From assembly GCA_963710755.1 (NCBI GenBank), contig CAVQBK010000001.1:160001-224000 (forward strand): a DNA stretch of 64,000 nucleotides, read 5' to 3'. This document shows positions 2,092-47,813 of this stretch, one piece after another (the first letter of the stretch is position 1; each line of letters starts with the position of its first letter). Origin of the DNA: an uncultured bacterium. GTDB taxonomy: Bacteria; Oederibacteriota; JAAXVQ01; JAUVAV01. The notes under the pieces are model-generated. The model was not told the origin of the DNA and ran no database searches. It saw only the letters and a program-made list of their open reading frames with translations. A program made the translations under genes and the position numbers.

Positions 2092-2146
2092 TTAATACGT
2101 CCTCCCGAATTCACCGCATTTCAACGCGGGAATAAAACGACAATGA
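2092..2146 (-). repeat. Copy (3' half) of the intergenic GAGGACGTATTAA element, upstream of rpe
   Basis: Minus strand reads ATTGTCGTTTTATTCCCGCGTTGAAATGCGGTGAATTCGGGAGGACGTATTAA and aligns with 22934-22986. Confidence 0.8.
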
Positions 2147-2228
2147 TTCGTTGCGGGATGTTTTGTTAAATTTGTAAATAACGTGCCCAGCTTGACCGTA
2201 GATTATGACGGCCTTGACTCATTAGCAA

Positions 2229-3200
2229 TTAGATGATTCGTTCTTCGGTAAATTTACCGTTGATATAGACCTTGAGGACAGCGGTAGTCCCATTGAGGAT
2301 CTTGCGTACCACCAAATCGGTTCCCGGTGTTTCCATGGCATTATAAAGTTCACGCAAACCATTGTCATCGCGCACCACCAGCTTGACACGCACGTCACGA
2401 CCACCGGAGGGCACGTGATAATGAATGCTGACAAAGCGTGTGGTTAGGTTTTGATTGTCGCTTCGGGTAGTGGCCACCAATCCGGCCGGCATGCCGGCCT
2501 GCACCCGGGATCCGGGCAAAGGAGTTTGCGCCATAATAGTGCCCGAGGGTTTGGTATTATCCACTTTACGTTTGATCTCGCTAAGGTCCATGTTGAGGTT
2601 TTCCAGCGTGCTGGTGGCCTGGTCAATAGGGTAGCCGATCAGGTCGGGCATGATATACCACAGAGGACGAGGACCACTTGACACCAAGAGATTGACATTG
2701 CTACCACTGGTGATGTTATGGCCATGCTTTGGCCACTGGTCCAGGACTTGATCCTTGGCAATGCGTTCATTGGCAATATGTGTAACCCGTCCAACGTGCA
2801 GCCCGGCATTGTCAATGGCCAAGGTGCCTTCGCGCAGGGAATGGCCCATTACCTCAGGCACAGTAATAGTGCGGCTGCCGCGTGATACCACTACTTGAAT
2901 AAGTCGTCCGCTTTTTACTTTTTCTTCCGCTTTGGGATCCTGGTCAAGAATGAAATTAGCTGCTATTTTGGGGTCGAAACGGTACTCTTTAACCGAGATA
3001 TTAAGCCGGTTGACGCGGCACAAACTCCGGGCTGATTCCAAGGTGCGGTGCGTGAGATCAGGCACCACCTCGATTTTTGCGACCGTTAAAAACTTGATGG
3101 TGGTTAGGGTGCTGAGGGCGAATACGGTCAGTGAAGCGATCAATACCGTAAAAAAAAACGTGCTGGATTTGGTGCTTTTTAAAGGTAAAGCTTCGGTCAT
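2229..3200 (-). CDS. Membrane-anchored PASTA-domain protein (3 PASTA repeats, no kinase domain)
   Basis: One N-terminal TM, then three VPD/E(L/V)...Q.P..G..V repeats. Confidence 0.88.
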   Translation of the reverse strand: MTEALPLKSTKSSTFFFTVLIASLTVFALSTLTTIKFLTVAKIEVVPDLTHRTLESARSLCRVNRLNISVKEYRFDPKIAANFILDQDPKAEEKVKSGRLIQVVVSRGSRTITVPEVMGHSLREGTLAIDNAGLHVGRVTHIANERIAKDQVLDQWPKHGHNITSGSNVNLLVSSGPRPLWYIMPDLIGYPIDQATSTLENLNMDLSEIKRKVDNTKPSGTIMAQTPLPGSRVQAGMPAGLVATTRSDNQNLTTRFVSIHYHVPSGGRDVRVKLVVRDDNGLRELYNAMETPGTDLVVRKILNGTTAVLKVYINGKFTEERII

Positions 3201-4240
3201 GCCATCCTCCGTGACTGCGTGACCGCCAATTGGCCACAGGCAGCGTTGATGCTTTGCCCTTGAGATCGGCGACAGGTGGCGGTAATCCCTGCGCGCTTTA
3301 AAGTGGCCAAAAAAAGATCAACGGCCCTTTCCTCCGGGGGCATAAAGGATTGATTATGAACAGGATTATAAGGGATTATGTTGACCTTGGCATTAATATT
3401 TTTCAACAAACGGCATAAAATTCGGGCATCTGTTTCGTGGTCATTGAGGTCCCTGATGAGGATATATTCGAAAGTGACCTGCTTGCCGGAGAGATGGGCA
3501 TACCGCCTCACGGCTGCCATCACTTTTTCCAAGGGATAGCGACGATTGATCGGCATCAGGCGGTCGCGGACCGCGTTGGTGGCAGCGTTCAAGGACACCG
3601 CCAAATGTGCTGGAATTGGTTTGTGGATTAATTCCTCCAGTCCCGGCAGCCATCCACAGGTAGAAACTGTAATGCGATGGCTCGACCAATTCCATCCATG
3701 TTTATTGGTTAAGATGTCCAACGTGGAGCGCAGTGCTTCCAGATTTTGTAGCGGTTCGCCCATGCCCATGAACACCAAATTGGTGGGGGGGCGGTGATAA
3801 AGAGCGTTTAAACCGCGAAGCTGACCGATCATTTCACTGGTGGTCAACTGCCGCACCAGCCCCATGGTGGCGGTGGCGCAAAAATGGCAGTTCATGGCGC
3901 AACCGACCTGGGTGGAGAGACAAAAACTTAACGCGCCACCGGGTTTGGGGAGTCCCACGCTTTCCACCATGGCCTTGTCAGCCAAAGCAAAAAGCACTTT
4001 TTGGGTGTTGTCCGTTGCGGTTAGGATTTTGACCGGTGCCCAGGGTGCGGGCAAGACAAAATGTTCCGTCAGCAAGGATCTCAGGGGTTTGGGGAAAACG
4101 GTCAGCTCATCGAACGATGAAAGCTGTTGTCGCCATAGGCCCTGCATAAGTTGATGTGCTCTGAATGCCGGGTACCCGTGCTCCTGCAACCAAAGCTGTA
4201 AGGCTTCCGGGTTTAAATTAAAAATATCCTGTTGGGTCAT
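3197..4240 (-). CDS. rlmN: 23S rRNA m2A2503/tRNA methyltransferase RlmN (radical SAM)
   Basis: CLSTQVGCAMNCHFCATA, MGMGEPL, RITVST, FEYILI, AACGQL; start uncertain (4240 or 4306). Confidence 0.95.
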   Translation of the reverse strand: MTQQDIFNLNPEALQLWLQEHGYPAFRAHQLMQGLWRQQLSSFDELTVFPKPLRSLLTEHFVLPAPWAPVKILTATDNTQKVLFALADKAMVESVGLPKPGGALSFCLSTQVGCAMNCHFCATATMGLVRQLTTSEMIGQLRGLNALYHRPPTNLVFMGMGEPLQNLEALRSTLDILTNKHGWNWSSHRITVSTCGWLPGLEELIHKPIPAHLAVSLNAATNAVRDRLMPINRRYPLEKVMAAVRRYAHLSGKQVTFEYILIRDLNDHETDARILCRLLKNINAKVNIIPYNPVHNQSFMPPEERAVDLFLATLKRAGITATCRRSQGQSINAACGQLAVTQSRRMA

Positions 4241-4289
4241 TGCATAGCCACCGCTGGTTAGGTTGTTGGCAGACTTATTGGTCGCGTGT

Positions 4290-4396
4290 TTAATACGACC
4301 TTGCATTATTTCTGCATTTCAAGGTGGGGATGAAGTGATAATAAAAACAATGATCATCTCCCATTCGTATCAAAATAGTCATTGGCAAGGTAATTG
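4290..4396 (-). repeat. Diverged copy of the intergenic element, upstream of rlmN
   Basis: Minus strand ATTACCTTGCCAAT...TATTTTGATA...GATCATTGTTTTTATTATCACTTCATC...TTGAAATGC...GCAAGGTCGTATTAA aligns with 22870-22986. Confidence 0.7.
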
Positions 4397-4400
4397 TCAA
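4372..4400 (-). promoter_or_regulatory. Putative sigma70 promoter for rlmN-PASTA-rpe
   Basis: TTGACA-17 nt-TATTTT on the minus strand. Confidence 0.5.
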
Positions 4401-4470
4401 ACAAAAACCTTGCGATAAGCGAATGAGGATGTTATAAAAATAGCCTAAAAATTCAGATGAGGTGATCTTC

Positions 4471-5340
4471 GTGTTGTTAAAATTAGCTCTTCCTGCAGGA
4501 AGTTTGAAAGAATCGACCTTCATGATGCTTAAAAAAGCCGGGTTTCGCGTGTCCACCACCGCCCGGTCTTATTATCCCACCATTGACGACCCGGAAATTG
4601 AGTTGATGTTGGTACGGGCCCAAGAAATTCCGCGCTATGTGGAGGGGGGGGTGTTCGATGCCGGACTCACCGGTGCCGATTGGACCGCTGAGAATAAAGC
4701 CAAAGTGCATAAAGTAGCTGAATTGATTTATGCCAAACAAGGGTTGCGTCCGGTGCGTTGGGTAATAGCCGTGCCTGAAAATTCCAAAATCAAAACCGTC
4801 AAAGATTTAAATGGCAAGCGCATTGCCACGGAATTGGTTAACTATGTCAAAAGTTATCTGAAAAAGAACAAGGTGAAAGCGGACGTGGAATTTTCCTGGG
4901 GAGCGACGGAGGCCAAACCGCCTGTTTTGGCCGATGCCATTGTGGAATTGACCGAAACCGGCAGTTCTTTAAGAGCCAATAAACTGCGTATTGTTGAGAC
5001 TATTTTAACTTCCAATACACTTTTAATTGCCAATAAACAATCATGGCTGGATGAAAAAAAACGAAAAAAAATCGAAACCTTGAATATGCTTCTCCAAGGG
5101 GCCTTGATGGCGGAATCCAAAGTTGGCATTAAAATGAATGTGCATAAAGATAATGTTGGAAAAGTGCTGACGTTGCTTCCAGCCATGAAAAAACCCACTA
5201 TTAGCGCTTTGACCGACGGTGAGTGGATGGACGTGGAAACCATTATCGAAGAGAAAAAAGTTCGGGAAATGATAGTAAAATTAAAGGATTCCGGGGCTCA
5301 GGATATTATCGAATATCCTTTGAATAAAGTGGTACTTTAA
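4471..5340 (+). CDS. hisG: ATP phosphoribosyltransferase, long form
   Basis: [40 protein letters not shown]; C-terminal regulatory domain; GTG start at 4471 or 4462. Confidence 0.95.
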
Positions 5341-5453
5341 CCCTATTAAGACCATGTCCGTTAAAGCACGTTTTATGTTATGGATAAAGTTGAAGCAAGC
5401 TGCGGTGGCAGATGGGCTGGGATCAGTAAGAGACAACGTGTCGAGGACACCCC

Positions 5454-5972
5454 ATGATGAGTAAGTGGTTTGGCACATGTATGATCTTATTAGCCGCAGT
5501 GGCGCTGAACGCCCTGGTTCATGGCGTGGATGTGGTTGTCCCTGATATAGCGGGTAATACTGGCGCCGGCCAGACTGGTATTAGTCAGCCTGCAGACAAA
5601 GCCCAGGAACAGGGCCCTAAAAGCATTGAGCAACCTGTTTATACTAAAAATAACCCTCTGGCCGATTTTCAAATCCATTTTTTTATATCATTGCCCTTTA
5701 CGGCTTTATACAGCTATCTGGCTGTGAGTTCTATGGACGCCATTGTGCAAGGGCAATATCCCACGGCTTTTCGAACCACCAATTCGTGGATGATTATAGG
5801 CTTGGCTGTGGGCTCTTCTCTGGCCATTGCTTTGGGCAATATTGGCAGAGTGCCCGACCAATCAGTGCCTGTCTTGGCCTCGGGATTGAATTGGCAGGAG
5901 GCCCGTGAAGCTGAGCCGAGTGATAACGTGGTCGTGGCAGAAAAAATGGAATTGTTGAGAATTTTGTATTAG
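5454..5972 (+). CDS. Hypothetical exported/membrane protein
   Basis: Signal-like N-terminus and two hydrophobic segments; GAGG upstream. Confidence 0.6.
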   Translation: MMSKWFGTCMILLAAVALNALVHGVDVVVPDIAGNTGAGQTGISQPADKAQEQGPKSIEQPVYTKNNPLADFQIHFFISLPFTALYSYLAVSSMDAIVQGQYPTAFRTTNSWMIIGLAVGSSLAIALGNIGRVPDQSVPVLASGLNWQEAREAEPSDNVVVAEKMELLRILY

Positions 5973-6198
5973 AATTATCCGTTTTGGGGTACACTATTTG
6001 TTCAAGAAATAAAATATTAGTCCCCAGAAACAGTCTTGTTTTTAAAGATGGTCTGGAAATGATGCAAAAAAACTTAGGCCCGAAGCATATTCCTGGGAGG
6101 CCAGGCTGGCGGGCGTCAGGGCAGGTAGCATAGCATCTGCATTCAAATGATGGTTTCGTTTTTGTTGTTGTCATGGTTTATTAGAATGGAGGCAGGTT

Positions 6199-6690
6199 AT
6201 GGAAGTCAGTTTATTACGCACCATTAATATTTTTGAAGGTCTCAGTGATGAAGATCTTGAAAAAATATTTAAATTGGCCCGTATCAAACTCTACCCGGCC
6301 AAAGCCATTATTCTGGAAGAAGGCAAATTAGGCGGCGCGCTGCATATTGTTATTAAAGGCAAGGTAAAAATCACCAAAAAAGTGGAAGGCAAGAAGGATA
6401 AATTCATTACCAAGTTGGGTCCCCAATCCATATTTGGTGAAATGTCCCTATTTGACAATTTGCCTTATTCCGCCAATGTTGTTGCCGATGAAGAAACCCG
6501 TTGCATGGTCATACCCAAGGATCGCTTTGATGAACTGTTGAAAAGGGATTTGACCTTGGCAGTAAAATTAATGACTCAGATCATCACTATTTTATCGCAA
6601 CGCCTACGAAATACCAACGAAGAGCTGGTGGCCATGACTACATGGAAAGACCGCATTCAGGAAGCGAGTAAAAAAAACACTAATGGCTAA
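6199..6690 (+). CDS. Cyclic nucleotide-binding domain protein (no HTH)
   Basis: IIL.EG...LHIV.KG.V.I, FGEMSL....YSA.V.A; GGAGG RBS. Confidence 0.9.
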   Translation: MEVSLLRTINIFEGLSDEDLEKIFKLARIKLYPAKAIILEEGKLGGALHIVIKGKVKITKKVEGKKDKFITKLGPQSIFGEMSLFDNLPYSANVVADEETRCMVIPKDRFDELLKRDLTLAVKLMTQIITILSQRLRNTNEELVAMTTWKDRIQEASKKNTNG

Positions 6691-7996
6691 AGTCATCCCT
6701 TTCAAAGGACTAAGTTATTCCGATAAATATTCCAAAAAAATGGGCGAATTGATCACACCGCCCTACGATATTATTACCCCCTCAGCTCAGCAGAAATTTT
6801 ACAAACAGCATGACTATAATATTATCCGGCTGGAATTGGGGAAATCCAAGCTCAGAGACAATGAAACCAATAATCGCTATACCCGGGCCCGTCAAATTCT
6901 GAAGGACTGGTTGAACCGGCAAGTGCTCACGGTGGATAACAAACCCGCCTATTATTTTTTACAATCAGAATACAAAGCGCCTAATGGTGAGATGAAGAGT
7001 GTTCGTGCGTTATATGCACTGGTGGAATTGGAAGAATTGAACGGTGGTAAAATTCTGCCCCATGAAAATACTTACGCCGGCCCCAAAGCAGATCGTTTTA
7101 ATTTGCTTAAGGAAACGGGTGTCAGCTTTTCTCCGGTTTATGCGCTTTACCGGGATCCCTCGGCCAAAATCACCATGGTCTTGAACAAAGTGATGCGCCG
7201 TAAACCCAAACTGGAGTTCAAAGACTGGGATCAAGCCACCCATCGCGTTTGGATCATTAACAAGCCCGATGAATGCGAGGCCATTCAACTGGGATTTCGG
7301 GGAAAAAAACTGTTGATCGCCGACGGGCATCATCGCTATTCCACGGCTTTGAGCTACAAAAACACTTATGGTGCTACGGCGGGTGAACAAGCCGATTATG
7401 TCATGATGTGCCTGACTGAAACCAATGATCCCGGACTCACCGTGTTGCCGGTTTACCGTCTGGTCAATGGAGTATCCAGAAAGCAATGGAACTATTTTAA
7501 AACCAATTTGGAAGATGCCTTTGATATCGAAAAAGTCAGCACCATTTTAGACCTTCCCAGGGCCCAGGCCGCGGCTTTTAAGGCCAGCAAACAGCCGGTT
7601 ATTGGTTATATTCCTGAAGGCGGGAAGGAAGCTTATTTACTCAAAATAAAAAAAGAAACTTTGGAATCTTTCAGCAGTAATCCGGCTTCAGGCCATTCAC
7701 GCATATTTTATAGATTGGATGTAGTGGTCCTCAATCAGATCATCCTGGAAGCTCTGTTGGGCATTATCCCCGGCGAAGAAAAAGACCGTTTGAGCTACAC
7801 CAAAAACCTTGGCGAGGCCGTTGCTTTGGTTAAAAAAAGCAGCGTGCAAGCCGCCTTTTTGCCGGGATTGCCCAATCTCAATGCGATTTGGGACCTGGCG
7901 AAAAAAGGCGAGACCATGCCACAAAAATCCACTTATTTTCTTCCCAAATTGGTTACCGGCATTGTCATGAATCCGGTTAATATTGACCGTAGCTAA
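6683..7996 (+). CDS. DUF1015 family protein
   Basis: PFKG, PPYDII, ILPHENT, IADGHHRY, MPQKSTYF.PKL.TG. Confidence 0.9.
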   Translation: MAKVIPFKGLSYSDKYSKKMGELITPPYDIITPSAQQKFYKQHDYNIIRLELGKSKLRDNETNNRYTRARQILKDWLNRQVLTVDNKPAYYFLQSEYKAPNGEMKSVRALYALVELEELNGGKILPHENTYAGPKADRFNLLKETGVSFSPVYALYRDPSAKITMVLNKVMRRKPKLEFKDWDQATHRVWIINKPDECEAIQLGFRGKKLLIADGHHRYSTALSYKNTYGATAGEQADYVMMCLTETNDPGLTVLPVYRLVNGVSRKQWNYFKTNLEDAFDIEKVSTILDLPRAQAAAFKASKQPVIGYIPEGGKEAYLLKIKKETLESFSSNPASGHSRIFYRLDVVVLNQIILEALLGIIPGEEKDRLSYTKNLGEAVALVKKSSVQAAFLPGLPNLNAIWDLAKKGETMPQKSTYFLPKLVTGIVMNPVNIDRS

Positions 7997-8043
7997 GTAG
8001 TGCTCGTTGTGGAAAATCCTCTTTTTTATAAAGGACAGTATTT

Positions 8044-8069
8044 GTAGGCGCACGGCCCTCCGTGCCCTT
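8044..8069 (+). repeat. Degenerate GTAG-type REP palindrome
   Basis: GTAGGCGCACGG-CCCT-CCGTGCCCTT; relatives at 44624, 47553 and 60934. Confidence 0.5.
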
Positions 8070-8257
8070 GTAAAATTACTTTTTATTTAAAGAGGGGATA
8101 AGGGCATAGTGTTCCTTCGAGACGGGCATCAATAACCATACGCTCCTACATAGAGTCCTATAGGAACAATGAGGCTTTCCACAGTAGAATCTAAGTGGGT
8201 TTTTACCTGCTTGATATAATCAGGCTGCGCTTACTACTGCTATGAGGGAGATTTTTA

Positions 8258-9625
8258 ATGGACTTATTTGAACAAGCCCTGTCTCACGATAATCCCCAAG
8301 CTCCCTTGGCTGATCGCATGCGCCCGCAGGAATTAGATCAAGTACTGGGGCAAGCGCATCTTCTTGACCGCGGTAAGTTTTTAAGATCTGCTATTGAAGA
8401 AGACCGGCTGCCTTCTCTGATCTTTTGGGGCCCGCCGGGCACCGGCAAAACCACCCTGGCCATGGTTATTGCCAAGCATTCGGGAGCTCGCTTTCAATCC
8501 TATTCCGCAGTCACCTCAGGGATTAAGGAATTAAAGGCCGTCATGGAACAGGCTAGAACCCATTTGGCCTACCAGCATCAAAAAACCATTTTATTCATCG
8601 ATGAGATCCACCGTTTTAACAAAGCCCAACAGGACGCTTTTTTGCCCTTTGTAGAACAAGGGATCGTCACCCTAATTGGGGCCACAACGGAAAATCCGAG
8701 TTTTGAAGTCAACGCCGCTCTCCTTTCGCGCTGTCAGGTGCTGGTACTGAAGGCCCTGGATCGGGAATCTCTCGTAGCATTGATGCAGCGCGCGTTGGAG
8801 GATAAACAACGGGGGTTGGGTGCATTAGAACTTGCCTTTGACGAGAAAGCCCTCAGCCTAATAGCACAGAAAGCTTACGGTGATGCGCGGGCTGCTTTGA
8901 ATCAGTTGGAACAGGTAGCCAATTTCTGTGCCCAAACTCCACGGTCCAGGTCGATTCAAGTGGAGGATGTGGAAGAAGCGCTGCAGGAAAAAGCCCTGCT
9001 CTATGACAAAGGCGGGGAAGAACACTATAATCTTATTTCGGCCCTGCATAAATCAGTACGAGGGTCTGATCCGGATGCCGCTTTATACTGGCTGGGACGA
9101 ATGCTCGAAGCTGGTGAAGATCCACATTATCTCTTGAGACGAATGGCACGGATGGCCAGTGAAGATATCGGCCTGGCTGATCCCAACGCACTCCATATGG
9201 CGGTCTCAGCACGGCAAGCCTTTGACTTCGTCGGTCTGCCGGAAGGCAAACTAGCCTTGGCAGAATTAGTGGTCTATCTTTGTCTGGCGCCCAAAAGCAA
9301 TACTCTCGAGGTGGGCTACAACGCCGTCCAAAAGGCCATCAAACAGCAGGGCCCCCTGCCCGTGCCCATGCACATCCGTAATGCCCCCACCGGTTTGATG
9401 CGCAACTTGGGCTATGGCAAGGATTATCATTATGCCCATGACTTTGAAGGCCATTGGGTGCCTGACGACTATCTGCCGGAAGAGCTTAGGGATGAGCGCT
9501 TTTTTCAGCCTGGGTCTATGGGGTGGGAGGGTAAAATGAAACCCCTTCTTGAACAACGGCTGGAAAAAAGGGCTAAAACCAGAAAATCATTCTCTCCCGC
9601 TGATCCTCATAACCATCAGAAATAA
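8258..9625 (+). CDS. rarA: Replication-associated recombination protein A (AAA+)
   Basis: [57 protein letters not shown]. Confidence 0.96.
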
Positions 9626-9783: not shown

Positions 9784-10551
9784 TTGATGACGGCCGAACG
9801 GGAGTCTATGCCCATGGGCTTGCAGGGTCAACGCCGGAAAACACCTTGGTATGTGATAACGGAAATTATCTTTTTTATATTACCGCTGGCCGGATTGTGG
9901 ACTACCTTGAAAAAGATGAATCGCCGTGCCTTTGGTCTGACCCTGGTTATCATCATGGTCCTGGGTTACAGTTGGAGTATGCTGGTGTCCAGTCATGGTT
10001 GGTGGCAATTTAACCCCCAGACCATGCTGGGCTGGCAGGTTTTACCACATTTACCGCTGGAAGAAGCCTTGTTCTATCCCTTGGGAGGTGCGCTCAGCAT
10101 TTTGGTGTATGGATTTCTGGCTGATAAAATGGCTAATCCTCGTTGGAAATCCTTGGGATTTTACTTTCTTTTCCTGGCCTTAACGCTGGTGGTTCTGGGA
10201 GCGGCTACCACGGCGGTGGCGAATAATTTTCATCCTGCCTATATCCTCAGTCAGGTGGTGCTTTACAACGGCCTGGCGTTGCTTCTCTGGCCGGTGGCAG
10301 GCCCCAAATTCCACCTGCCCGGGCTGTTGGTCACTATCGTTATCTTAACTGCTGTTGGAGTTTTCTGGAATTATGTGGGATTTACCCAACGCCTTTGGTG
10401 GTACACGGCTGTTTTGGGGTGGAACTGGCCCAAAGCAGTGCCTGTGGATGACTGGAATTTTTATATTTTTGCACCCCTGGCTGCAATCTCGCTGTATATA
10501 TTGTTGGATTCCAAGCATAGCCGCCGGTCAACCCATCCAGGGGATTTATGA
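9784..10551 (+). CDS. Integral membrane protein with two lycopene-cyclase-type (CrtYc/CrtYd-like) repeats
   Basis: GWWQF...LG...LPLEEALFY and LWWY..VLG....VPVDDWNFY resemble the W.F..lG..PxEE motif; start uncertain. Confidence 0.7.
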   Translation: MMTAERESMPMGLQGQRRKTPWYVITEIIFFILPLAGLWTTLKKMNRRAFGLTLVIIMVLGYSWSMLVSSHGWWQFNPQTMLGWQVLPHLPLEEALFYPLGGALSILVYGFLADKMANPRWKSLGFYFLFLALTLVVLGAATTAVANNFHPAYILSQVVLYNGLALLLWPVAGPKFHLPGLLVTIVILTAVGVFWNYVGFTQRLWWYTAVLGWNWPKAVPVDDWNFYIFAPLAAISLYILLDSKHSRRSTHPGDL

Positions 10552-10889
10552 TGCGTCCCTGGCCATGGTATTTTATGATGGACCTTATATTGTGGGGGAT
10601 AAGTCTGGCTTTGGTGAAATGGAGTTGGTCCAAGTTGAGCCGTTCTTGGAAAACAACAGCAATGGTCACTGCTACCTTGGTGATGGGATTGCAAACCTGG
10701 AATGAGTGGCTCAGCTTCAATGTCTATAAAGCTTGGGGGTTTTCCCAGGCCCATAATACTCTGCTGGGTATCCATTTCTTAGGAGCACCGGTGGAAGAAC
10801 ATTTGTTTTGGTACGCCTTTGCCTGGATGGTGCCTTTTTTGTATGCCCGCCTGGCTGGCGGAAAGGAAGCTCATGATGGCCGCGCCTAG
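10548..10889 (+). CDS. Lycopene-cyclase-domain small membrane protein
   Basis: AWGF....LLGIHFLGAPVEEHLFW; ATGA overlap with the upstream gene. Confidence 0.72.
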   Translation: MMRPWPWYFMMDLILWGISLALVKWSWSKLSRSWKTTAMVTATLVMGLQTWNEWLSFNVYKAWGFSQAHNTLLGIHFLGAPVEEHLFWYAFAWMVPFLYARLAGGKEAHDGRA

Positions 10890-11265
10890 TAGCCCACCAT
10901 CAAAACAGGCGCACCTGGCTTTGGATAAGGGATCAAGGAAACAACTCTACCTGATCTGGTGGGTGCTGGGCGTGGCGGCTCAAATCCTGCTCAGCCTGCC
11001 AATGGTGATGAAAACTATTTCCTGGAAGGCGGTTGGCTTGACCTCACTGGTGTTTGTCCCGCTCATGTTTGCGGTTGAAAGCGTCAGTGTTTATTGGGGA
11101 TGGTGGGTATGGAATGAAGATAAACTTTGTGGTCTTAAGGCGGGCTTTATTCCGCTGGAAGAGGTAGCTTTGTATTTTCTGGTAGTGCCGTCGGTGGCGG
11201 TGATGTTTCATCTTGTCTGCCGTCTGTTGAAAGCCGTTTTTCCCAGCTTGAAGGCAGACAATTAA
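10873..11265 (+). CDS. Lycopene-cyclase-domain small membrane protein
   Basis: E..SV.WGWWVW...LCG..AGFIPLEEVALY; AAAGGA RBS. Confidence 0.72.
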   Translation: MMAAPSSPPSKQAHLALDKGSRKQLYLIWWVLGVAAQILLSLPMVMKTISWKAVGLTSLVFVPLMFAVESVSVYWGWWVWNEDKLCGLKAGFIPLEEVALYFLVVPSVAVMFHLVCRLLKAVFPSLKADN

Positions 11266-11303
11266 AATCCGGCAAGTAGCATCGAAAGGAAGGACTTGGA
11301 AAA

Positions 11304-11825
11304 ATGAATTTTCTTTATGCATGGCGTGGGGAACTATACACCCTGGCAAGCATTGTTTCGACTTGGTTTGCCATTAAATGGATTTTTAAAAAGAATCCGA
11401 CCATTTATATGCTGGCCGGGGCTCTGGTAGGTCTGGCCAATGAGTTTATGACCGAGCCGCTTTGGACTTACCATATGCAGTTTTACTTATGGCGGGACAT
11501 CTCGCCGTTCACTATTCTGGGATGGGGCCCGCTTTTTGCCATTATAGTGCTTGGCTCGGAAGCACTTTATAAAAAGTTGTTCCCTTCCAGTCCAGTGCGA
11601 AATTGGAAAATTATTCTTACTGATTTAATGGTGGGAGCGCCTTTGATGGTGGCAGGCGAGACTTTGGGACTAAGGGTGCTGCACATCTGGGAATATAATA
11701 GTGTCCTGCAATGGCATGCTATGGTGCCCTTGATTAATTACCCCTTGGCCGGACTGGTCAGCATGGCCTTTTTCATTATGGCCATGCCGGCTGTTGTGCG
11801 CTACTGGGCGGAGAAAGGAGCCTGA
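11304..11825 (+). CDS. Membrane protein with two E..W.Y..P repeats (CruF/DUF2878-like)
   Basis: NEFMTEPLWTY...DISPFTILGWG and GETLGL...WEY...NYPL; paralogue of the next gene. Confidence 0.65.
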   Translation: MNFLYAWRGELYTLASIVSTWFAIKWIFKKNPTIYMLAGALVGLANEFMTEPLWTYHMQFYLWRDISPFTILGWGPLFAIIVLGSEALYKKLFPSSPVRNWKIILTDLMVGAPLMVAGETLGLRVLHIWEYNSVLQWHAMVPLINYPLAGLVSMAFFIMAMPAVVRYWAEKGA

Positions 11826-11826
11826 C

Positions 11827-12366
11827 ATGTGGACATTGGTGACGGCCTGGAGGTCTGAATTGCTCACGGTTTTGGCGTTTGCTTTTTCCTGGTGGTTTTT
11901 CAGTCGCATGCTGCACCTGTCTTTTTTAAAGACCTGGGTTCCCGGATTTTTACTAGGAGCAGCGGTGGAGATCATGACCGAGCCGGAATGGACTTACACC
12001 ATGCAATGTTACATCTGGCGTGATGTCTCGCCTTTTGTCATGATGGGATGGGGGATTATGTTTTCTTGGATGATATTATTTTCCGACAAACTTTACCGTA
12101 CTTTTTTCCATGTGACCATGTCAGAACGGGCGCCCCAGGATCCCCGATTATGGCTGACCGATGTGCTGGTGGGCCTGCCGTTTTTTTTAGGAAATGAACT
12201 TTTTGGACTTCATATTTTAAAGAGTTGGAAATATAATGCAGTTTTACAATGGACTACGATGCTGCCGGGTATTAATTATCCACTGGAAGGCTTGGTCGCC
12301 ATTTTATTTTTTAGTCTGGGACTACCGGCCGCAGTACGCTTTTGGAAAGGATACCCTGTGCCTTGA
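11827..12366 (+). CDS. Membrane protein, tandem paralogue of 11304-11825
   Basis: VEIMTEPEWTY...WRDVSPFVMMGWG and NELFGL...WKYNAVLQW...INYPL; AAGGAG RBS. Confidence 0.68.
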   Translation: MWTLVTAWRSELLTVLAFAFSWWFFSRMLHLSFLKTWVPGFLLGAAVEIMTEPEWTYTMQCYIWRDVSPFVMMGWGIMFSWMILFSDKLYRTFFHVTMSERAPQDPRLWLTDVLVGLPFFLGNELFGLHILKSWKYNAVLQWTTMLPGINYPLEGLVAILFFSLGLPAAVRFWKGYPVP

Positions 12367-16109: not shown

Positions 16110-16310
16110 GCCAAAGACTCCGGGACAATCAGGTTAGGCCACGAATTAAATGCTACTGTGAACTGATGCGTTGTATTATACGGTAGCCGGTTTAGGAGAA
16201 CAACCTTTATTCCCGCTAATTAGGCCTGGACTGGTTTCTGGGCTATTGACATTTGGGGAGCAAGCGTCAATAATGATTCTCGCTTATCCTATCAGGGGGT
16301 CAACCGTTCG

Positions 16311-16794: not shown

Positions 16795-16906
16795 TAATAC
16801 GCTGCCATGAATTACGGTGTATTTGGATATGAAAGGAAGAAAAATATTGTTTCTTTATTGTCGCTTGTTCCGCATTTAAGTAGGGAATGAAGCGAGGACG
16901 TATTAA
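16795..16906 (+). repeat. Full copy of the intergenic element, with terminal inverted repeats TAATACG...CGTATTA
   Basis: Aligns end to end with 22870-22986; two internal hairpins. Confidence 0.8.
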
Positions 16907-16923
16907 AATGGAGGCAAGCAAGT

Positions 16924-18483
16924 ATGGTTAGGGTTAAAGCTCAGTTTTGGGTTTATACAATAACGATTCTAGGAATCATAAATCTCCTGACCGGATGTAC
17001 CAATATTCAAGATCTTCAAAAGCAAATTCACTCTACCGCTGCGGCGGGCCACTATTTTCCTCAAAAAGCCAAAGATTTGAACGCCTTGCTAAAAAAAGCC
17101 TTTCAGGCAGCGCCCAGCCCCAAACTAGATGGCAACCCCATCGGGTTGATGGTACCCCATGGCGCTATGAAATATACGGGGGTTATCACGGCCATGGCCA
17201 TGCGGACCTTAACCCGTACGGACGTGGATACCATTTATATTCTGGGGACATCCCATTTTGCCAATGTTCGAGGGGCCATTACCTGGCAAGGCCAGGCTTG
17301 GCGCACACCTTTGGGTCTGTACGCCATTGATCAACAGGCCGTGCGCGAACTCCTGCGAGACTGCCCCTATATCCATCTATGGCCTTCAGCTTGGAAACAG
17401 GAGTACTCGGTGGATGTGCCCATACCCTTTCTCCAAACAGTGGCACCCAAGGCAAAGATGGTCCCCCTTATATTTGGCACCACCAATTGGGAAGAGACCT
17501 GGGCTATTGCCAGGGCCATCGCGGCCAATGCCAAAGGCAAGAAGGCCCTGGTGCTCATTTCGGTTGACCTGGCCCATTATCCCTCTGCCGAGGATAGCAT
17601 GGTCATCGACCGGCAAGTTTTAAGTACCATTCAGCGTTTTGATCCTTATGCTTTGGAAAAGCTGGATGCTCGGTTACTGGCCAAAGATATTCCTAATTTA
17701 ATATGCACCGTCTGTGGCTTAGCGGCCCTGAAAACCGGCATGGTGGCCACCAATTTGATGGGGGCCAATAAAATTCAAAAGATCCAATATGCCAATACAG
17801 CCATGATTGCAGGCAAGAAGACCAAGGTCGTGGGGTACGGCAGTCTGGCTTTCGTTAACGATCCCCAACAATCGCCGGTCACCCTGGTAGAGAAACATCC
17901 AAGTCAGGAATCTGTCCGGTGGCATGAAGCAGATATTCAGGAACTTCTGGACATTGCCCGTGCGGCGATTGTCGAAGGTATTGCCACGGGCAAACAATTG
18001 CGCCCTACCACCGCCAACCCCAGGCTCCTGGAGAAACATGCTGTATTCATTGAATTGACCAATCGGGACGGTGATGTCAGAGGCAGTATGGGGGTTATGG
18101 AACCGCGATTACCTTTATACCAGAGTGTGGCACAAATGGCCGTGGCCGCAGCATTTAAAGATCCCCGTTATGATCACATAAAAGCATCGGAACTTCCTGA
18201 CCTCAATATTGAGTTGTCCTTAATTTCACCTTTAAAACCCATAAGCGATGTGGGGGAAATTAAGCTGGGGCAGGAGGGTGTCTTAATTAGAAGAGGCAGA
18301 CGGGAAGGGTTTTATTTTCCGCAAGTGCCTATCCAAAAAAAATGGTCCAAAGAGGAGTTGTTAACCAACCTTTGCCTCCAAAAAGCCCGATTGCCTGAAA
18401 AGGCTTGGCAGGAGAAAGGGTCCCAGCTTTATGTTTTTACAGTGAGGTCTTTTAAACAGCCTGCACCAGGGCGAAATCCATAG
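16924..18483 (+). CDS. MEMO1 (AmrB)-AMMECR1 (AmrA) fusion with a putative lipoprotein signal
   Basis: AAAG.YFP, VPHG..YTG, W.TPLG, PFLQ, DLAHY, CG; C-terminal AVFI.L...RGSMG, AAFKDPRY, FPQV, LC.KA; LTGC lipobox. Confidence 0.85.
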   Translation: MVRVKAQFWVYTITILGIINLLTGCTNIQDLQKQIHSTAAAGHYFPQKAKDLNALLKKAFQAAPSPKLDGNPIGLMVPHGAMKYTGVITAMAMRTLTRTDVDTIYILGTSHFANVRGAITWQGQAWRTPLGLYAIDQQAVRELLRDCPYIHLWPSAWKQEYSVDVPIPFLQTVAPKAKMVPLIFGTTNWEETWAIARAIAANAKGKKALVLISVDLAHYPSAEDSMVIDRQVLSTIQRFDPYALEKLDARLLAKDIPNLICTVCGLAALKTGMVATNLMGANKIQKIQYANTAMIAGKKTKVVGYGSLAFVNDPQQSPVTLVEKHPSQESVRWHEADIQELLDIARAAIVEGIATGKQLRPTTANPRLLEKHAVFIELTNRDGDVRGSMGVMEPRLPLYQSVAQMAVAAAFKDPRYDHIKASELPDLNIELSLISPLKPISDVGEIKLGQEGVLIRRGRREGFYFPQVPIQKKWSKEELLTNLCLQKARLPEKAWQEKGSQLYVFTVRSFKQPAPGRNP

Positions 18484-18537
18484 GCAGATATTGCGTGCCG
18501 GAATTGTTCATTAAGTTTAGCAGGGAGTAGTATTTTA

Positions 18538-19149
18538 ATGATAGTTTTATTCGGCCTGCTTTTGGGGGCGTCCTTGGCAACCTATCCTGTTTTATCCTCA
18601 TCATCGCTTGGCTACGCTTTTCCCAACATTAATGGCCAAGTTTCAGCTCGCCCTACTTTTGGGCGGGTTTTTCGTTTTTTTATTGGACGTTATTTGGGAA
18701 CGCTTTTGTTGGCCATGATTTGCAGCACTGTTGGCGTTTTATTTAAAATGGAATGGACCCAACGTCTGCTGTTGGTGGGATTGATTTTCCTTGGGATTTT
18801 TATCATCCTTTATGCCCTTACCAATGATTCGCCGGAGCTCATTTTAGCGAAAAAAAGTGATGTTACGGGCACGTCCTTACCCCTCATACTCCTGGGATTT
18901 TTGTCTGCTTTTATACTGGCAGCACCCAACATCATTGCGATTTTATGGGTTTTTTTCAATTTTAATTTACAAACAAATTATATTTTTTTTACAAATTTAT
19001 TTCTCGGCCATATGCTCTTTTTTTTACCCTTCCTTTTAAACCGAACCTGGTCAAATAGCCGATTTTACTATTATTTTGCAAGGACAATCCTTATTTTTAA
19101 CGGATGTGTGGTGTTGTTTTATAGTGTGAAGAACCTGTTGTTAAAATGA
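18538..19149 (+). CDS. Polytopic membrane protein (DsbD_2/TauE-like, divergent)
   Basis: About 6 TMs; FFIGRYLG.LLLA resembles the lGR motif; AT-rich. Confidence 0.55.
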   Translation: MIVLFGLLLGASLATYPVLSSSSLGYAFPNINGQVSARPTFGRVFRFFIGRYLGTLLLAMICSTVGVLFKMEWTQRLLLVGLIFLGIFIILYALTNDSPELILAKKSDVTGTSLPLILLGFLSAFILAAPNIIAILWVFFNFNLQTNYIFFTNLFLGHMLFFLPFLLNRTWSNSRFYYYFARTILIFNGCVVLFYSVKNLLLK

Positions 19150-19189
19150 AACATTGGGCTTGCAAATAAAATAATTAGTGAAATCAAAT

Positions 19190-19218
19190 TTGACTTGTCA
19201 TTTTCCAGGTGCTATATT
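19190..19218 (+). promoter_or_regulatory. Putative sigma70 promoter
   Basis: TTGACT-17 nt-TATATT with an extended TG. Confidence 0.5.
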
Positions 19219-19279
19219 TAGAAAAATTGAGAAAATAGGTTCGGTATCAGCAGGTAATGGCTTTAGAAAAAAGTGAGGA

Positions 19280-19564
19280 TTGATGGACCAGGACTTTTCG
19301 ATTTTAAAAAAATCAGTCGGTATTTTGAAGATATTTTCGTATGTTTTGGCAGGAATTGGTATTGCTGGCGCACTAATTATTTTATTAAGTAAAACACCCG
19401 GATCTGGTAAGTTGGCCAGTTTGGGTGTTTTGTTTATGGGGACTTTATATTTTGCAATTGTGTATTTAGTTGCAGAAGTAATTAAGTTGCTGTTGGAAAT
19501 TAATGAACGTTTAAAAAACCTATCGCAGACCGTCCAGCAGCCTTCTAAGCGTGAAATTCGATAA
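19280..19564 (+). CDS. Small 2-TM protein
   Basis: Two TMs then a helical tail; GAGG RBS. Confidence 0.65.
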   Translation: MMDQDFSILKKSVGILKIFSYVLAGIGIAGALIILLSKTPGSGKLASLGVLFMGTLYFAIVYLVAEVIKLLLEINERLKNLSQTVQQPSKREIR

Positions 19565-19588
19565 TGATAACTGGAGGGTCGTCATTTC

Positions 19589-22500
19589 ATGAAACACCAA
19601 TTCTGCATTGCCAGCATCTTTAAAAAAAGCTTTCTTTTTCTTTCTTCTCTGGCCATCCTGGCCACACTCTGTTTTGTGGTTACAACACCTAGCTTTGGTA
19701 AGGAATTCACCGATGATTTGACCACCGACTTCTATGGCGGATCGGAAGATAATATCATCATCCGCCAAAACCTGAAAGGCAGCCTGCAATTGGCGCCGTA
19801 CGCAGTTCTGGGCAATTGGAATGCAGTTAATGCACCGTCGAGTGCCTCGCTGTATATGGCGTCCACCACTGTTTATAATGGGAAATTATATTTAAGCGGC
19901 GGCTTTGGCAACGCTGACTCGGGAGGCCTTAATAATACAGGCACTGATAATGCTATTAATAAAATCTGGTACGCCACTGTTCTGGCGGACGGAAAAATTG
20001 AAGAATGGAAACCAATCGATGAGACATCACGATTGCCACAACCCACCTATGGTCATTCTTCCACGGTAGTGAATGGCCGTTTATATATTATCGGCGGCAG
20101 CAATTCGGTTGATAAAAAACCGGTCAGCTCTGTTTACTGGGCCAAAATCATCGGCCATGACGGGAGCATCAAGGCTTATTACAAGTCCAATACTTGGACA
20201 GCCGTAGCTTCCTTGCCAACGCCCTTATTTAAAGCAGCTGCCGCTCAATATGAAGGCCGGATTTATGTGGCCGGTGGCATTGATTCGTCCAATGTGGCCC
20301 AAAATGTTGTGTATTATACGGATGTTCACCCTGATGGTGATATCACGGCCTGGCAAACCGCCAGTGCCCAGCTTCCTGGCAATTTGGCAGGTCATTCCAT
20401 GGTGCAGAGCAATGGCCGGCTCTATGTAGTAGGGGGCTCCACCACCGGGGAACAAATCAATGCTACTAATAGTGTTTATATCGGCAATATCGATCCCACG
20501 ACAGGAGATGTGGTCAGCTGGACTACCGCTACCAGCCTGCCGGAAGCCTTATTTGGGGCGGCTGCGGCTGTTTCTGCCGGTAAAATCTGGGTCAGCGGCG
20601 GCATTGTCTCCGGAACCGCCAGAGCTAATGTTTATTATGCACTTATCGACCGCCTAGCCGGTCTGATTCCGGGTCCCGGACAACCCGATACATGGACCAG
20701 AACCACTGATTTACCGATACCCCTTTACAATCATAATATGGTGGCCTTTAATGGCCGTTTATTTATTACAGGCGGTTATAATGCCGGAGCCAGCGATAAA
20801 TGTTATACCAGCACCCTTTTAAGCAATAAAACCAATATCAAAAAATGGGAGCCAACCACATCTTTATTTATTTCTGAGTATGGGGAAGGCAGCTTAAAAA
20901 CCTGGACCGGTCATACGGCTATTCTAAGGGTGCCTTTGCAGCAATCGTCATCTTCGTCTGTCGGATCACCCCAGGTTTATGTGCTGGGCGGCGGATCGAA
21001 TAGCTATAGTGCCTACGCTGACGGACAGGCTTTTACCGGGGCTGCTCGACCTGAGGCCTACTCGACCATATACAATGCGGCTATAGATTCCAATGGCGAG
21101 TTGAAGACTTGGAAAGCCGAGGACTCTGCTGGAACCATTCCTGTGGCCAGCATCATGCATATGTCCACGCTCTGTAATGGGGCGATGTACGTCATTGGGG
21201 GTGCCAATTCACTTAATGCCACCATCTGGGCCGATGCCCCGGCGGGTTCAATAACTGCTGTAGGCAACACCGCCACGCCAACGTCGCAAGCTATTGCCTA
21301 CGGTGAAACCATGGTTTTTTATGAGCAGGTAAAACAAGGGGGAACCAGCAGTGGCGGTTCTGCCGGCACTATTGAAAAAACAGCGCCCATTCCCATTTTT
21401 GATCCCAAATATGAATTTGATACTTATAATACAATCCGTGGATTACCTGCAGCCGATCCTTTCCCCGCAGTAAATGCTAAAACAAGTGAGCCCATATATC
21501 AACCCTTGATACGTGCTGCCGTGACCTCCTACAACGGCTATATTTATGTTATTGGCGGTATTTCCAGGGAGAATGATGATTGGGATACGGTCAATACACC
21601 AAATTTACCCATATCCAGCAGACGCTATTTTGAAGACAGGGTATGGTATTGCCGACCCAATCCTTCTGGGAGTATCAATGAGTTTGGTGGTCCCGGCGGA
21701 TGGAAAAACACGACAGCCTTATCCCCTACGATCCATGCCTCTGATTTAGTACCACTTTATGATGCCCAAGCTTGTGTGGCTTATGGCCGGATTTATCTCT
21801 TTGGCGGCCGTGATGCCAGTGGTGTTGTGCGATCAGAAGTGTATTATGCCCGTATTCTGGATGACGGCACCTTGGGGGCTTGGATAGAGGATACCCCTAT
21901 GCCCACCACTTTGGCGGAGCATCAAGTGGTCTTCACTTCCGGCCGCTTTTATGTAATAGGTGGGGTTATTGATGCTGCCGGTAATTTGACGGACGATGTT
22001 TTTTATTGTACCCCTGCTGCTCAAGTGGCCCTGGATACGCCTTCCATTCCTACGGTATCTAATCCAGGCGCCTGGGAATTATCTTTAACGGCCTTGGAAT
22101 ACCCTGTGGCCGGCCATCAATGTGTGAGTAACAATGGCTATATTTATCTGTTGGGCGGACGATACAATCCCACGGATCCGCACACCTCCAGCGCTTACCT
22201 TACCAATATTGCAGATATGTATCATACTCAAACTTTGGTTTTTGCCTGGGCAGGCAATTATGAACGTTATGTAGATCTTGACAAAGATCAGTTGGTGCAA
22301 TTTATCAACTGGGATGCCTTACCCAACAATGAAACCATACGATTCCGGTATCGCTATGCTTTGGAAAAGGGGCAGTGGTCTCCCTGGACCTTATCCCAAT
22401 CCCTGGGACCTGTTAATGTAAACCATTTCTGCCGCTATATCCATTACAAGGTCCATTTTGAAACCCTGACCAATGATCCTGCTAACTTTGCCAATACACC

Positions 22501-22852
22501 GGAAATCTCCAGGGTCTTCATTGATTATGCAGCCTCAAAACGAGTAGATGAAGATAACTTCCAGATCAATCACAACAAATTTGATCCTCAGGTGCAATCT
22601 CTGACTGTTTCTTATAAAACCCGTGATCATAGCGTTGATGGCGTGGTTATCCGTGTATACAATCTTGAAGGTGAAATGATTAAAAAACAGGAGTTTGCCA
22701 TTGCGCCGGGAACAATCTTGCCGGTCACTGGTTCCTGGATTTGGGATGGCACCAATGACAATGACGAATTGGTGGCCAATGGTGTTTATATTATTCAGTA
22801 TAATTCTGGTAATACCCACAAAATCAGAAAAGTGGTTGTTTATAAACAATAA
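19589..22852 (+). CDS. Secreted Kelch-like beta-propeller protein with C-terminal FlgD-Ig/T9SS-like sorting domain
   Basis: Signal peptide; about a dozen GRLY..GG...VY...W...LP repeats; ends IRVYNLEG..WDG.N..ELVANGVY.....KVVVYKQ. Confidence 0.85.
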   Translation: MKHQFCIASIFKKSFLFLSSLAILATLCFVVTTPSFGKEFTDDLTTDFYGGSEDNIIIRQNLKGSLQLAPYAVLGNWNAVNAPSSASLYMASTTVYNGKLYLSGGFGNADSGGLNNTGTDNAINKIWYATVLADGKIEEWKPIDETSRLPQPTYGHSSTVVNGRLYIIGGSNSVDKKPVSSVYWAKIIGHDGSIKAYYKSNTWTAVASLPTPLFKAAAAQYEGRIYVAGGIDSSNVAQNVVYYTDVHPDGDITAWQTASAQLPGNLAGHSMVQSNGRLYVVGGSTTGEQINATNSVYIGNIDPTTGDVVSWTTATSLPEALFGAAAAVSAGKIWVSGGIVSGTARANVYYALIDRLAGLIPGPGQPDTWTRTTDLPIPLYNHNMVAFNGRLFITGGYNAGASDKCYTSTLLSNKTNIKKWEPTTSLFISEYGEGSLKTWTGHTAILRVPLQQSSSSSVGSPQVYVLGGGSNSYSAYADGQAFTGAARPEAYSTIYNAAIDSNGELKTWKAEDSAGTIPVASIMHMSTLCNGAMYVIGGANSLNATIWADAPAGSITAVGNTATPTSQAIAYGETMVFYEQVKQGGTSSGGSAGTIEKTAPIPIFDPKYEFDTYNTIRGLPAADPFPAVNAKTSEPIYQPLIRAAVTSYNGYIYVIGGISRENDDWDTVNTPNLPISSRRYFEDRVWYCRPNPSGSINEFGGPGGWKNTTALSPTIHASDLVPLYDAQACVAYGRIYLFGGRDASGVVRSEVYYARILDDGTLGAWIEDTPMPTTLAEHQVVFTSGRFYVIGGVIDAAGNLTDDVFYCTPAAQVALDTPSIPTVSNPGAWELSLTALEYPVAGHQCVSNNGYIYLLGGRYNPTDPHTSSAYLTNIADMYHTQTLVFAWAGNYERYVDLDKDQLVQFINWDALPNNETIRFRYRYALEKGQWSPWTLSQSLGPVNVNHFCRYIHYKVHFETLTNDPANFANTPEISRVFIDYAASKRVDEDNFQINHNKFDPQVQSLTVSYKTRDHSVDGVVIRVYNLEGEMIKKQEFAIAPGTILPVTGSWIWDGTNDNDELVANGVYIIQYNSGNTHKIRKVVVYKQ

Positions 22853-22869
22853 TCAAGGTTCTCAAGAAA

Positions 22870-22986
22870 TAAAATACCTCGCCATTCATTGGGGAGTATT
22901 TGGATAGCAGCGGAAAAGAAGATCATTATTTTTATGGTCGCTTCATCTCTGTATTGAAATACGGGGAATTCGCGAGGACGTATTAA
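22870..22986 (+). repeat. Full copy of the intergenic element, upstream of the PorV-like gene
   Basis: AATACCTCGCCAT..GTATTTGGATA..GGAA..GTCGCTT..TTGAAATAC..GCGAGGACGTATTAA; the end overlaps the AAGGAG RBS. Confidence 0.8.
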
Positions 22987-22996
22987 GGAGATCAAT

Positions 22997-23944: not shown

Positions 23945-23957
23945 CAGGGAGTATCCG

Positions 23958-47737: not shown

Positions 47738-47813
<76 letters not shown>

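Follow-up and report, generated by a model that had tools for sequence, protein, structure and literature searches.

Four copies of an intergenic repeat, each just upstream of a start codon, raise the question of whether this locus records the spread of a mobile element or the dispersal of a regulatory sequence. They lie in a 64,000-nt stretch of a contig from an uncultured bacterium of the phylum Oederibacteriota (the window). The host probably belongs to candidate division FCPU426 or a near relative of it. An earlier reading of the letters, made without database searches (the sequence-only reading), had proposed either a MITE mobilised by an IS630/Tc1-type element or an undescribed cis-regulatory RNA. 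On balance the repeat is probably, with much room left for doubt, an old, non-autonomous, lineage-restricted, TA-ended MITE.

Homology of the four copies (Table 1) was borne out at the places where they had been reported, with leave-one-out E-values of 1e-8 to 4e-17, slightly optimistic as the rows were drawn from a single 4-way alignment, and pairwise identities of 59-75%. The local alignment score of every pair was reached by 0/60 shuffles. The repeat is 105-117 bp long, with a GC content of 35-42% vs 47% for the window. That c1-c4 all fall within 21 kb does not reach significance as clustering (p 0.10). Names of the downstream genes and 3' ends of the copies were likewise confirmed, the latter lying 13 (rpe), 49 (rlmN), 17 (MEMO1-AMMECR1), and 10 nt (porV) before the ATG. 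The genes next to the copies have no function in common, and c1 and c2 fall within one predicted operon. Open frames that begin within c1 and c2 give rpe and rlmN false extensions, which calls for caution in annotation.

Table 1. Copies of the repeat and neighbouring features, in window positions.
Feature	Position	Strand	Description
c1	2092..2148	-	3' half of repeat, in the PASTA-rpe spacer; leave-one-out nhmmer E 1.2e-8, 3' part of model only
c2	4290..4396	-	near full-length, between divergent hisG and rlmN; E 6.8e-12
c3	16795..16906	+	full-length; perfect 7-bp inverted ends, both termini TA; E 9e-15
c4	22870..22986	+	full-length; fills the spacer between a kelch/beta-propeller gene and porV; E 4.3e-17
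candidate c5 (unproven)	51850..51994	-	two inverted-repeat units that abut at TTAA
sigma-70-like site TTGACA-17-TATTTT	4372..4400	-	straddles c2 left junction; 10/12 matches
rpe	1413..2078	-	gene downstream of c1
rlmN	3197..4240	-	gene downstream of c2
AmmeMemoRadiSam B+A (MEMO1-AMMECR1) fusion gene	16924..18483	+	downstream of c3
PorV/PorQ-family gene	22997..23944	+	downstream of c4

The repeat is comprised of two modules split by an internal inverted junction. Its right (3') end is invariant and closes in TTAA, with terminal TA in 4/4 copies. On the left, the ends of c2 and c4 are decayed; the TA there is clean in c3, displaced by 2 nt in c4, altered in c2, and absent in c1. Inverted ends of 5 bp pair in 3/3 full copies, and the 7-bp terminal inverted repeats described for c3, which include the TA, are present. 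Between c2 and c4 both sides of the end-to-end pairing have changed (CCTCGC/GCGAGG vs CCTTGC/GCAAGG), as read from the letters. In c2 the 5' module is shortened, the 3' hairpin is broken, and the inner inverted end pairs with the 3' end over ~10 bp. No longer flanking direct repeat was seen on reading c3 and candidate c5. The terminal octamer occurs 7 times in the window vs 1.6 expected, 6/7 being intergenic, and 2 of the 7 lie 66 bp from each other as an inverted pair. The conserved columns form 46 runs vs 61 expected (p 0.0025), and this blocky conservation, together with the invariant right end, hints at selection, though it was by their 3' end that the copies had been chosen.

Whether a fifth copy exists is doubtful. 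Candidate c5, with 9-bp ends at 51850/51915 and 11-bp ends at 51911/51994 delimiting its units, carries the terminal octamer of c1-c4 and a similar inner junction. It has the hup terminator on one side and an ATPase gene on the other, is antisense to both flanking genes, and faces no start codon. It is the best non-training covariance-model site in the window, but at E 0.3-0.7; its block score was reached in 28/600 shuffles, two coding sites scored higher, and a chance locus scored the same.

The anatomy fits the MITE proposed in the sequence-only reading, c1-c4 being short (<200 bp), non-coding, AT-rich, multicopy, and intergenic, with inverted ends, TA/TTAA termini, and unrelated neighbours. 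Against it, scans of 27 and 32 window proteins, which left several long ORFs aside, gave no transposase, plasmids and phages gave no insertion sequence with the same ends, and no empty site was seen in DNA. An IS630/Tc1-type transposase acting in trans would once have inserted the repeat at the TA within TTAA-like sites, presumably duplicating the target TA. Such targets would be available in AT-rich spacers immediately 5' of a Shine-Dalgarno sequence, and insertion there would leave the Shine-Dalgarno intact, most clearly in c4, whose terminal TAA is the start of that of porV. Closeness to start codons would then arise without regulation. The copies would since have drifted to ~70% identity and lost a common fold, and are thus probably immobile. 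Being presumably co-transcribed, single copies may alter local expression, as known MITEs do, through a hybrid promoter at c2 or lower accessibility at c4.

Several observations count for such a MITE. With c4 removed, 28 nt would remain ahead of porV, an ordinary length for a spacer (median 23.5 for 50 co-directional gaps). The octamer excess is mostly intergenic and includes an inverted pair. A single strict 3'-end pattern, run against GTDB (185,579 species), gave 4 loci, 4/4 attributable to chance and none with the rest of the element; the pattern misses diverged relatives, and the source genome itself was unmatched, hence absent or masked in the collection. Two of these chance loci read as staphylococcal-family coding sequence, possibly MraZ. 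This lack of 3'-end relatives also counts for a MITE, given that MITEs are ~97% genus-confined in the available part of a recent census (bioRxiv 10.1101/2024.01.18.576219). By protein back-translation, neither the 60 nt upstream of one rlmN orthologue (75% identity) nor the 138 nt upstream of another (49%) can hold the 3' 12-mer within one mismatch, an indirect and weakly favourable test, as the bare octamer is still placeable with one mismatch. Blastn against plasmids and phages (E. coli chromosomes being outside the search) gave a best E of 0.3 with nothing covering 80% of the query, and no sequence match between the repeat and known TA-ended MITEs. Among the papers listed, none gave a description of the repeat, those matching four right-end 11-mers had unrelated titles, and no title for candidate division FCPU426 concerned repeats.

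Other observations count against it. The decayed left end contrasts with the invariant right one, and conserved columns are clustered. The 3/3 informative copies are sense, unlike pneumococcal repeats, which are enriched between convergent genes in the available text of PMC3049150. The inverted ends fall short of the 10-15 bp that define MITEs in the census cited above, as far as its available part goes. On this point ERIC and RUP speak for a MITE, since, as described in the accessible part of PMC2229807, they have contiguous inverted ends of only 7 and 9 bp with terminal TA. Typical MITEs fold into long stable stems according to the same portion of PMC2229807. No such stem-loop is present in the repeat, either singly, where folding is weak (z -0.6 to -2.6, c3 being the -2.6), or in consensus; weak folding fits decay and lowers the claim of an intact, typical MITE member.

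Among known repeats, ERIC/IRU, RUP, Correia/NEMIS, and RU-3 are most alike in what PMC2229807, as available, reports of them: 100-130 bp, AT-rich, intergenic, with short inverted ends and terminal TA, and co-transcribed. RU-3 is described there as partly conserved, older, and probably immobile, and the present repeat too appears partly conserved, old, and probably immobile. It differs from ERIC, RUP, Correia, and RU-3 in its weaker folding, its decayed left end, its internal inverted junction that yields two modules, and in having no known cognate insertion sequence or empty site. The Caulobacter CIR is similar as well (~110 bp, intergenic, TA ends, two arms and a linker), but is conserved across species with a methylase site according to the portion of PMC2229807 available, whereas no relatives of the present repeat were found and its arms are not conserved.

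The main rival, which we consider unlikely, is a regulatory cassette dispersed ahead of genes, in the manner of Neisseria REP2/CREN or Borrelia IR-A/B and possibly a domesticated MITE, whose conserved blocks, as DNA or 5' leader, would be read by a protein or sigma factor co-regulating the downstream genes. All 4/4 copies point at a start codon 10-49 nt off, conservation is blocky with an invariant 3' octamer, and c2 overlaps a sigma-70-like site. REP2 likewise lies directly upstream of co-regulated genes, and is described in the available part of PMC3184786 as 120-150 bp long with two internal stem-loops, carrying promoter, RBS, and ATG, and as lacking terminal inverted repeats. Promoter, RBS, and ATG lie inside REP2/CREN and Borrelia IR-A/IR-B, and terminal inverted repeats are lacking there; the present repeat instead has such ends, and its 3' end lies at or before the RBS. 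A predicted operon shared by c1 and c2, and a candidate c5 with no start codon ahead of it, also speak against a cassette.

The orientation and RBS proximity from which an effect on translation had been suggested proved a weak argument. Copy c2 lies between divergent genes and would be sense to one of them whichever way it pointed; only three copies are therefore informative, and by hand calculation their agreement in sense orientation has p = 1/8. Gaps are short, so that closeness to the start is forced in c4 and probably in c1. The RBS lies mostly outside the repeat: its GAGG stands 18-26 nt from the ATG in c1, c3, and c4, too far to be a ribosome-binding site, and better-placed anti-SD matches in c3 and c4 are at or past the repeat end, where c1 has a weak AAGG only. 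Start-region accessibility is unusual (lower) only in c4.

Sigma-70-like sites number 4 vs 3.3 in shuffles, so the c2 site is not significant by itself; judged from its letters, it is a possible hybrid promoter for rlmN-PASTA-rpe. No site of this kind was seen in c3 or c4: the c3 left junction has a 9-of-12 site only, and c4 has none inside. With a -10 box at the invariant 3' end, transcripts at c1 and c4 would begin within the Shine-Dalgarno or beyond it. ECF-, sigma-32-, and sigma-28-type promoters at the 3' end were considered by consensus and rejected, as the spacing is wrong and the start would fall in the Shine-Dalgarno. The AT-rich middle of the repeat may be read as a putative Fur-box-like sequence.

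An undescribed structured cis-regulatory RNA, a riboswitch-like leader whose 3' strand would switch between the inner helix and the 5' end and so gate translation, is very unlikely. In its favour, the 5' hairpin reported for c3 and c4 was found in both, c3 has the strongest single fold, and the 3' GCGAGG segment of c4 is able to pair with either of two partners. The 3' hairpin with a TGAA loop is intact in c1 and c4, with one two-sided and several one-sided changes between them; the stem is mostly unpaired in c2, and c3 has another loop and a 3-nt gap. The compensatory change noted within this hairpin was confirmed, but amounts to 1 of 17 pairs vs 1.3 expected, a level matched in 400/500 shuffles. 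As a sense-strand property of the family, structure did not hold up: no fold is shared by three or four copies (SCI 0.01-0.19), and the consensus fold has -0.12 kcal/mol and 0 compensatory pairs. Sense SCI values of 0.19 and 0.01 were equalled in 59/300 and 153/300 shuffles. Antisense SCI (0.33-0.34) is weak too, yet beats sense, with 1 and 3 of 300 shuffles as good. Four sequences give all these covariation and structure tests low power. At gathering score Rfam matched only two tRNAs in the window, and no hit close to the copies had an E below 1, so that c1-c4 match no family there; GTDB gave no exact 3'-pattern relatives. It is also unlike a riboswitch to recur four times within 21 kb ahead of genes that are unrelated. 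The RNA that had been suspected thus shows neither a conserved sense fold, nor excess covariation, nor an Rfam match.

The better antisense score bears on a further reading, highly improbable as well, in which the repeat would derive from a single-strand element of IS200/IS605 or RAYT type, itself non-autonomous, with directional insertion beside TTAA and recognition via a subterminal hairpin of the opposite strand. An antisense consensus hairpin does lie 11 nt from TTAA and beats shuffles, one end is invariant and the other variable, and the abutting units of candidate c5 recall mosaic REP arrays. IS200/IS605 and RAYT-type families are not known to have inverted ends, which the repeat has. 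Its other end lacks a conserved tetranucleotide and there is no GTAG/GGAG foot, the GTAG-type hairpins of the window are a separate family, and no such transposase is among the window proteins scanned.

That the repeat is what remains of a small protein gene (e.g. a type I toxin or the tail of a transposase), with the terminal TAA as its stop, is largely refuted and extremely improbable: one frame is open to that TAA through c1, c2, and c4, but in c3 it is interrupted by two stops, the 5' half of c2 does not keep the register of c4, a three-peptide profile run against 1.84 billion proteins gives 0 matches at E 0.001, and the c2 frame has no Pfam match. Integron attC sites, which are imperfect palindromes, resemble the repeat in length and in lying directly ahead of genes in the orientation of these; the neighbours of the repeat differ in being housekeeping genes, and attC was rejected since the ends of c2, c3, and c4 have no RYYYAAC/GTTRRRY core, a single unpaired match lying next to c1 at 2165-2171.

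According to the available part of the census (bioRxiv 10.1101/2024.01.18.576219), 56.5% of 183,232 genomes contain MITEs. If the repeat is a decayed MITE, it would be a routine new family of a familiar kind and would mark a lineage in a phylum that has barely been studied. Unlikely, and of greater consequence, is a domesticated MITE-derived 5'-leader cassette, spread by transposition at TTAA ahead of Shine-Dalgarno sequences and kept in sense orientation only, with its invariant 3' block read by a host protein and unrelated operons wired into one regulon. Such a regulon would take in rRNA methylation, the pentose phosphate pathway, and a PorV-type secretion cluster, and the cassette, if true, would be a MITE-derived counterpart of REP2 outside the pathogens in which such cassettes were described. 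Should the sense, start-proximal placement hold genome-wide, the repeat would offer a countable case of a mobile repeat turned regulatory leader.

The intergenic repeat forms a genuine family. The sequence-only reading had placed four homologous copies (c1 to c4) ahead of unrelated genes, and leave-one-out profiles, identity and shuffle tests bear out all four; the distances to the ATGs and the downstream genes hold as well (table). Against a profile of the other three copies, with rows all drawn from a single four-way alignment, E was 1.2e-8 (c1, which matches only the 3' half of the repeat), 6.8e-12 (c2), 9e-15 (c3) and 4.3e-17 (c4). The copies share 59-75% identity, and none of 60 shuffles reached the alignment score of any pair.

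Features of the window (positions are window positions)
Feature	Position	Strand	Remarks
c1	2092	-	13 nt before ATG of rpe
c2	4290	-	49 nt before ATG of rlmN
c3	16795	+	17 nt before ATG of AmmeMemoRadiSam B+A fusion
c4	22870	+	10 nt before ATG of PorV/PorQ-family gene
c5, doubtful fifth copy	51850-51994	-	
Weak resemblance to c2 3' part	1236-1282	+	convergent gap
Weak antisense match to c3	16110-16310		promoter-like site ahead of HTH gene
GC-rich hairpins	8044-8067	+	distinct from c1-c4 repeat
	60935-60961	-	as above
	60855-60909		as above
Inverted repeat	60749-60930		25 nt, 80% complementary, arms 132 nt apart, further hairpins enclosed; between TonB-receptor-like gene and tolQ
Short shared palindrome	37903-37915		intergenic
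	51866-51879		intergenic, within c5
Five small membrane-protein genes	9784-12366	+	directly before histidine kinase and response regulator; lycopene-cyclase-like Pfam matches for three (close to the cut-off or under it), the other two paralogous and assigned to no family
Type IX-like secretion cluster	19589-28095	+	outside Bacteroidota
Kelch/beta-propeller protein	within 19589-28095	+	type IX-like cluster
Two PorV/PorQ-family genes	within 19589-28095	+	one fused to OmpA-like domain
Thr/Pro-rich protein	within 19589-28095	+	T9SS type A sorting domain
Two tRNA genes	47738-47935	+	sole Rfam matches at gathering score in window

Full copies measure 105-117 bp, have 35-40% GC (47% in the window) and fall into two modules. 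A 5' unit of 22-30 nt is followed by an inner junction and then by about 78 nt whose terminal octamer is invariant and finishes in TTAA. In c3 and c4 the 5' unit forms the hairpin described previously. Five left-end bases pair with the right end in all three full copies, and the terminal inverted repeats claimed for c3 are present, with seven end bases pairing, TA included. The window has seven occurrences of the octamer where 1.6 would be expected, and six of them are intergenic.

Most likely, though with modest confidence and provisional class membership, the repeat is an old, lineage-restricted, TA-ended miniature inverted-repeat element (MITE). It is dispersed, AT-rich and inverted-ended, lies in spacers of unrelated genes, and has the size, composition and intergenic location of a MITE; the stable fold was not found. 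It would work like ERIC, RUP, Correia and RU-3, which carry inverted ends of 4-24 bp and a terminal TA (passages of PMC2229807). In the repeat itself, TA stands cleanly at both termini in c3 alone; on the left it is shifted by 2 nt in c4, changed in c2 and missing from c1. Copy c4 fills a 144-nt gap, of which 28 nt would remain without it, a length near the median co-directional gap of 23.5. Counting against a MITE, conserved columns are clustered along the repeat (p 0.0025), the right end is far better preserved than the left, and the repeats of pneumococci concentrate between convergent genes, not before start codons (passages of PMC3049150). No description of the c1-c4 repeat was found among the open-access papers listed by the searches; an unlisted family is to be expected, since more than half of the prokaryotic genomes sequenced carry MITEs, most of them confined to a single genus (parts of bioRxiv 10.1101/2024.01.18.576219). 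Integron attC was rejected, as attC cores are absent from the repeat.

An upstream cassette resembling REP2/CREN of Neisseria is an unlikely but credible alternative. REP2 shares the placement ahead of genes and differs in holding promoter, RBS and ATG without inverted ends (passages of PMC3184786). All four copies do stand before ATGs in sense orientation, as first proposed, but 50 of the 54 intergenic gaps counted are co-directional, c2 sits in a divergent gap, where orientation is uninformative, and the three informative copies thus give p = 1/8; the placement is suggestive and statistically thin. Ribosome-binding sites are mostly outside the repeat: in c3 the best anti-SD match begins where the repeat stops, in c4 it overlaps the repeat's final TAA, and in c2 it is weak and external, while the strongest in c1 lies within the repeat, about 30 nt from the ATG and too distant to serve. 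A sigma-70-like site spans c2's left junction, another (9 of 12) lies at that of c3, and none was found for c4. Start codons within c1 (2092-2114, -) and c2 (4290-4306, -) share the reading frames of rpe and rlmN respectively, so that ORF calling yields false N-terminal extensions; homologues support starts at 2078 and 4240. Likewise c4 is in frame with porV, and a short frame beginning just beyond c3 overlaps the MEMO1-AMMECR1 start.

Start-region accessibility is 0.38, 0.50, 0.58 and 0.22 for c1 to c4, against a median of 0.45 (IQR 0.36-0.54) over 53 genes with window lengths not identical, so c4 alone is unusual. Somewhat less probable than the upstream cassette is a domesticated repeat acting as a portable 5'-leader or regulatory cassette.

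A single-strand-mobilised element is improbable, as is a structured cis-regulatory RNA, proposed earlier and unsupported here. Single copies fold in sense with z of -0.6, -1.9, -2.6 and -1.8 (c1 to c4), and the four-way consensus reaches -0.12 kcal/mol with zero compensatory pairs. In sense, the three full copies reach a structure conservation index (SCI) of 0.19, which 59 of 300 shuffles match; all four copies, compared over the 3' half, give 0.01 (153 of 300). Pairwise values are higher, 0.36 for c3 and c4 (8/300) and 0.55 for c1 and c4 (24/300); antisense values of 0.33-0.34 are weak, though above shuffles (1 and 3 of 300 as good). The helices drawn previously pair in 80% of cells (33-60% in slid controls) but show no excess of covariation, two-sided changes numbering 1 against 1.3 expected, though power is low with four sequences. 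Rfam gave no match for the repeat. Least of all is a coding remnant to be believed: a single frame is open through c1, c2 and c4 but interrupted in c3, and its peptide has no match among 1.84 billion proteins.

A strict 3'-end pattern matching c1-c4 hit 4 loci across 185,579 GTDB species, 0 with the remainder of the element; the source genome went unmatched and is therefore absent from the collection or masked in it. No plasmid or phage hit was better than E 0.3. A transposase was looked for and not found in 27 window proteins compared with NCBIfam and 32 with Pfam (overlapping sets; several long ORFs lay outside the scan). HisG and Rpe have their closest taxon-named relatives in candidate division FCPU426 (73% and 59% identity), which makes this the putative taxon of the host. 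Homologues of HisG, Rpe and RlmN (P0002/P0122/P0148 and P0003/P0123/P0150) lie on contigs of matching length (4,962 and 32,142), which suggests close relatives with the same gene order. Two of nine RlmN matches have an N-terminal extension exposing upstream codons; these codons (60 nt in a 75% relative, 138 nt in a 49% relative) cannot accommodate the 3' 12-mer within one mismatch, though the octamer by itself can be placed if one mismatch is allowed. This lends weak support to absence of the repeat from the orthologous rlmN site in relatives.

Candidate c5 is suggestive only as a fifth copy. At 51850-51915 two terminal octamers stand in inverted orientation, and directly next to them is a second unit whose 11-bp ends match perfectly; on the minus strand the two-module layout is repeated, pointing away from each of the genes beside it. 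No other site outside the training set did better with the covariance model, yet E was just 0.3-0.7 and a pattern-selected chance locus equalled the score. By block score, two coding sites exceed it and 28 of 600 intergenic shuffles match it. The palindrome was found twice against 0.05 expected, its pattern having been picked after both occurrences were noticed. The resemblance at 1236-1282 (z 5.9, 0/60 shuffles), the top non-family score among about 270 comparisons, was missed by both profile and covariance model; if real, it would be a further copy without a start codon ahead. The promoter-like site in 16110-16310 overlaps a stretch that we take to resemble a Fur box. The GC-rich hairpins presumably belong with GTAG-/GGAG-type REP sequences, and the inverted repeat beside tolQ is possibly another MITE.

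As a MITE, the repeat would have been moved by an IS630/Tc1-type transposase acting in trans and inserting it at the TA of TTAA-like sites; insertion just 5' of Shine-Dalgarno sequences would be favoured and tolerated, and copies would then decay. Local expression effects of the copies are possible by analogy with ERIC and Correia, MITEs for which such effects are described (in passages of PMC2229807 and PMC3184786).
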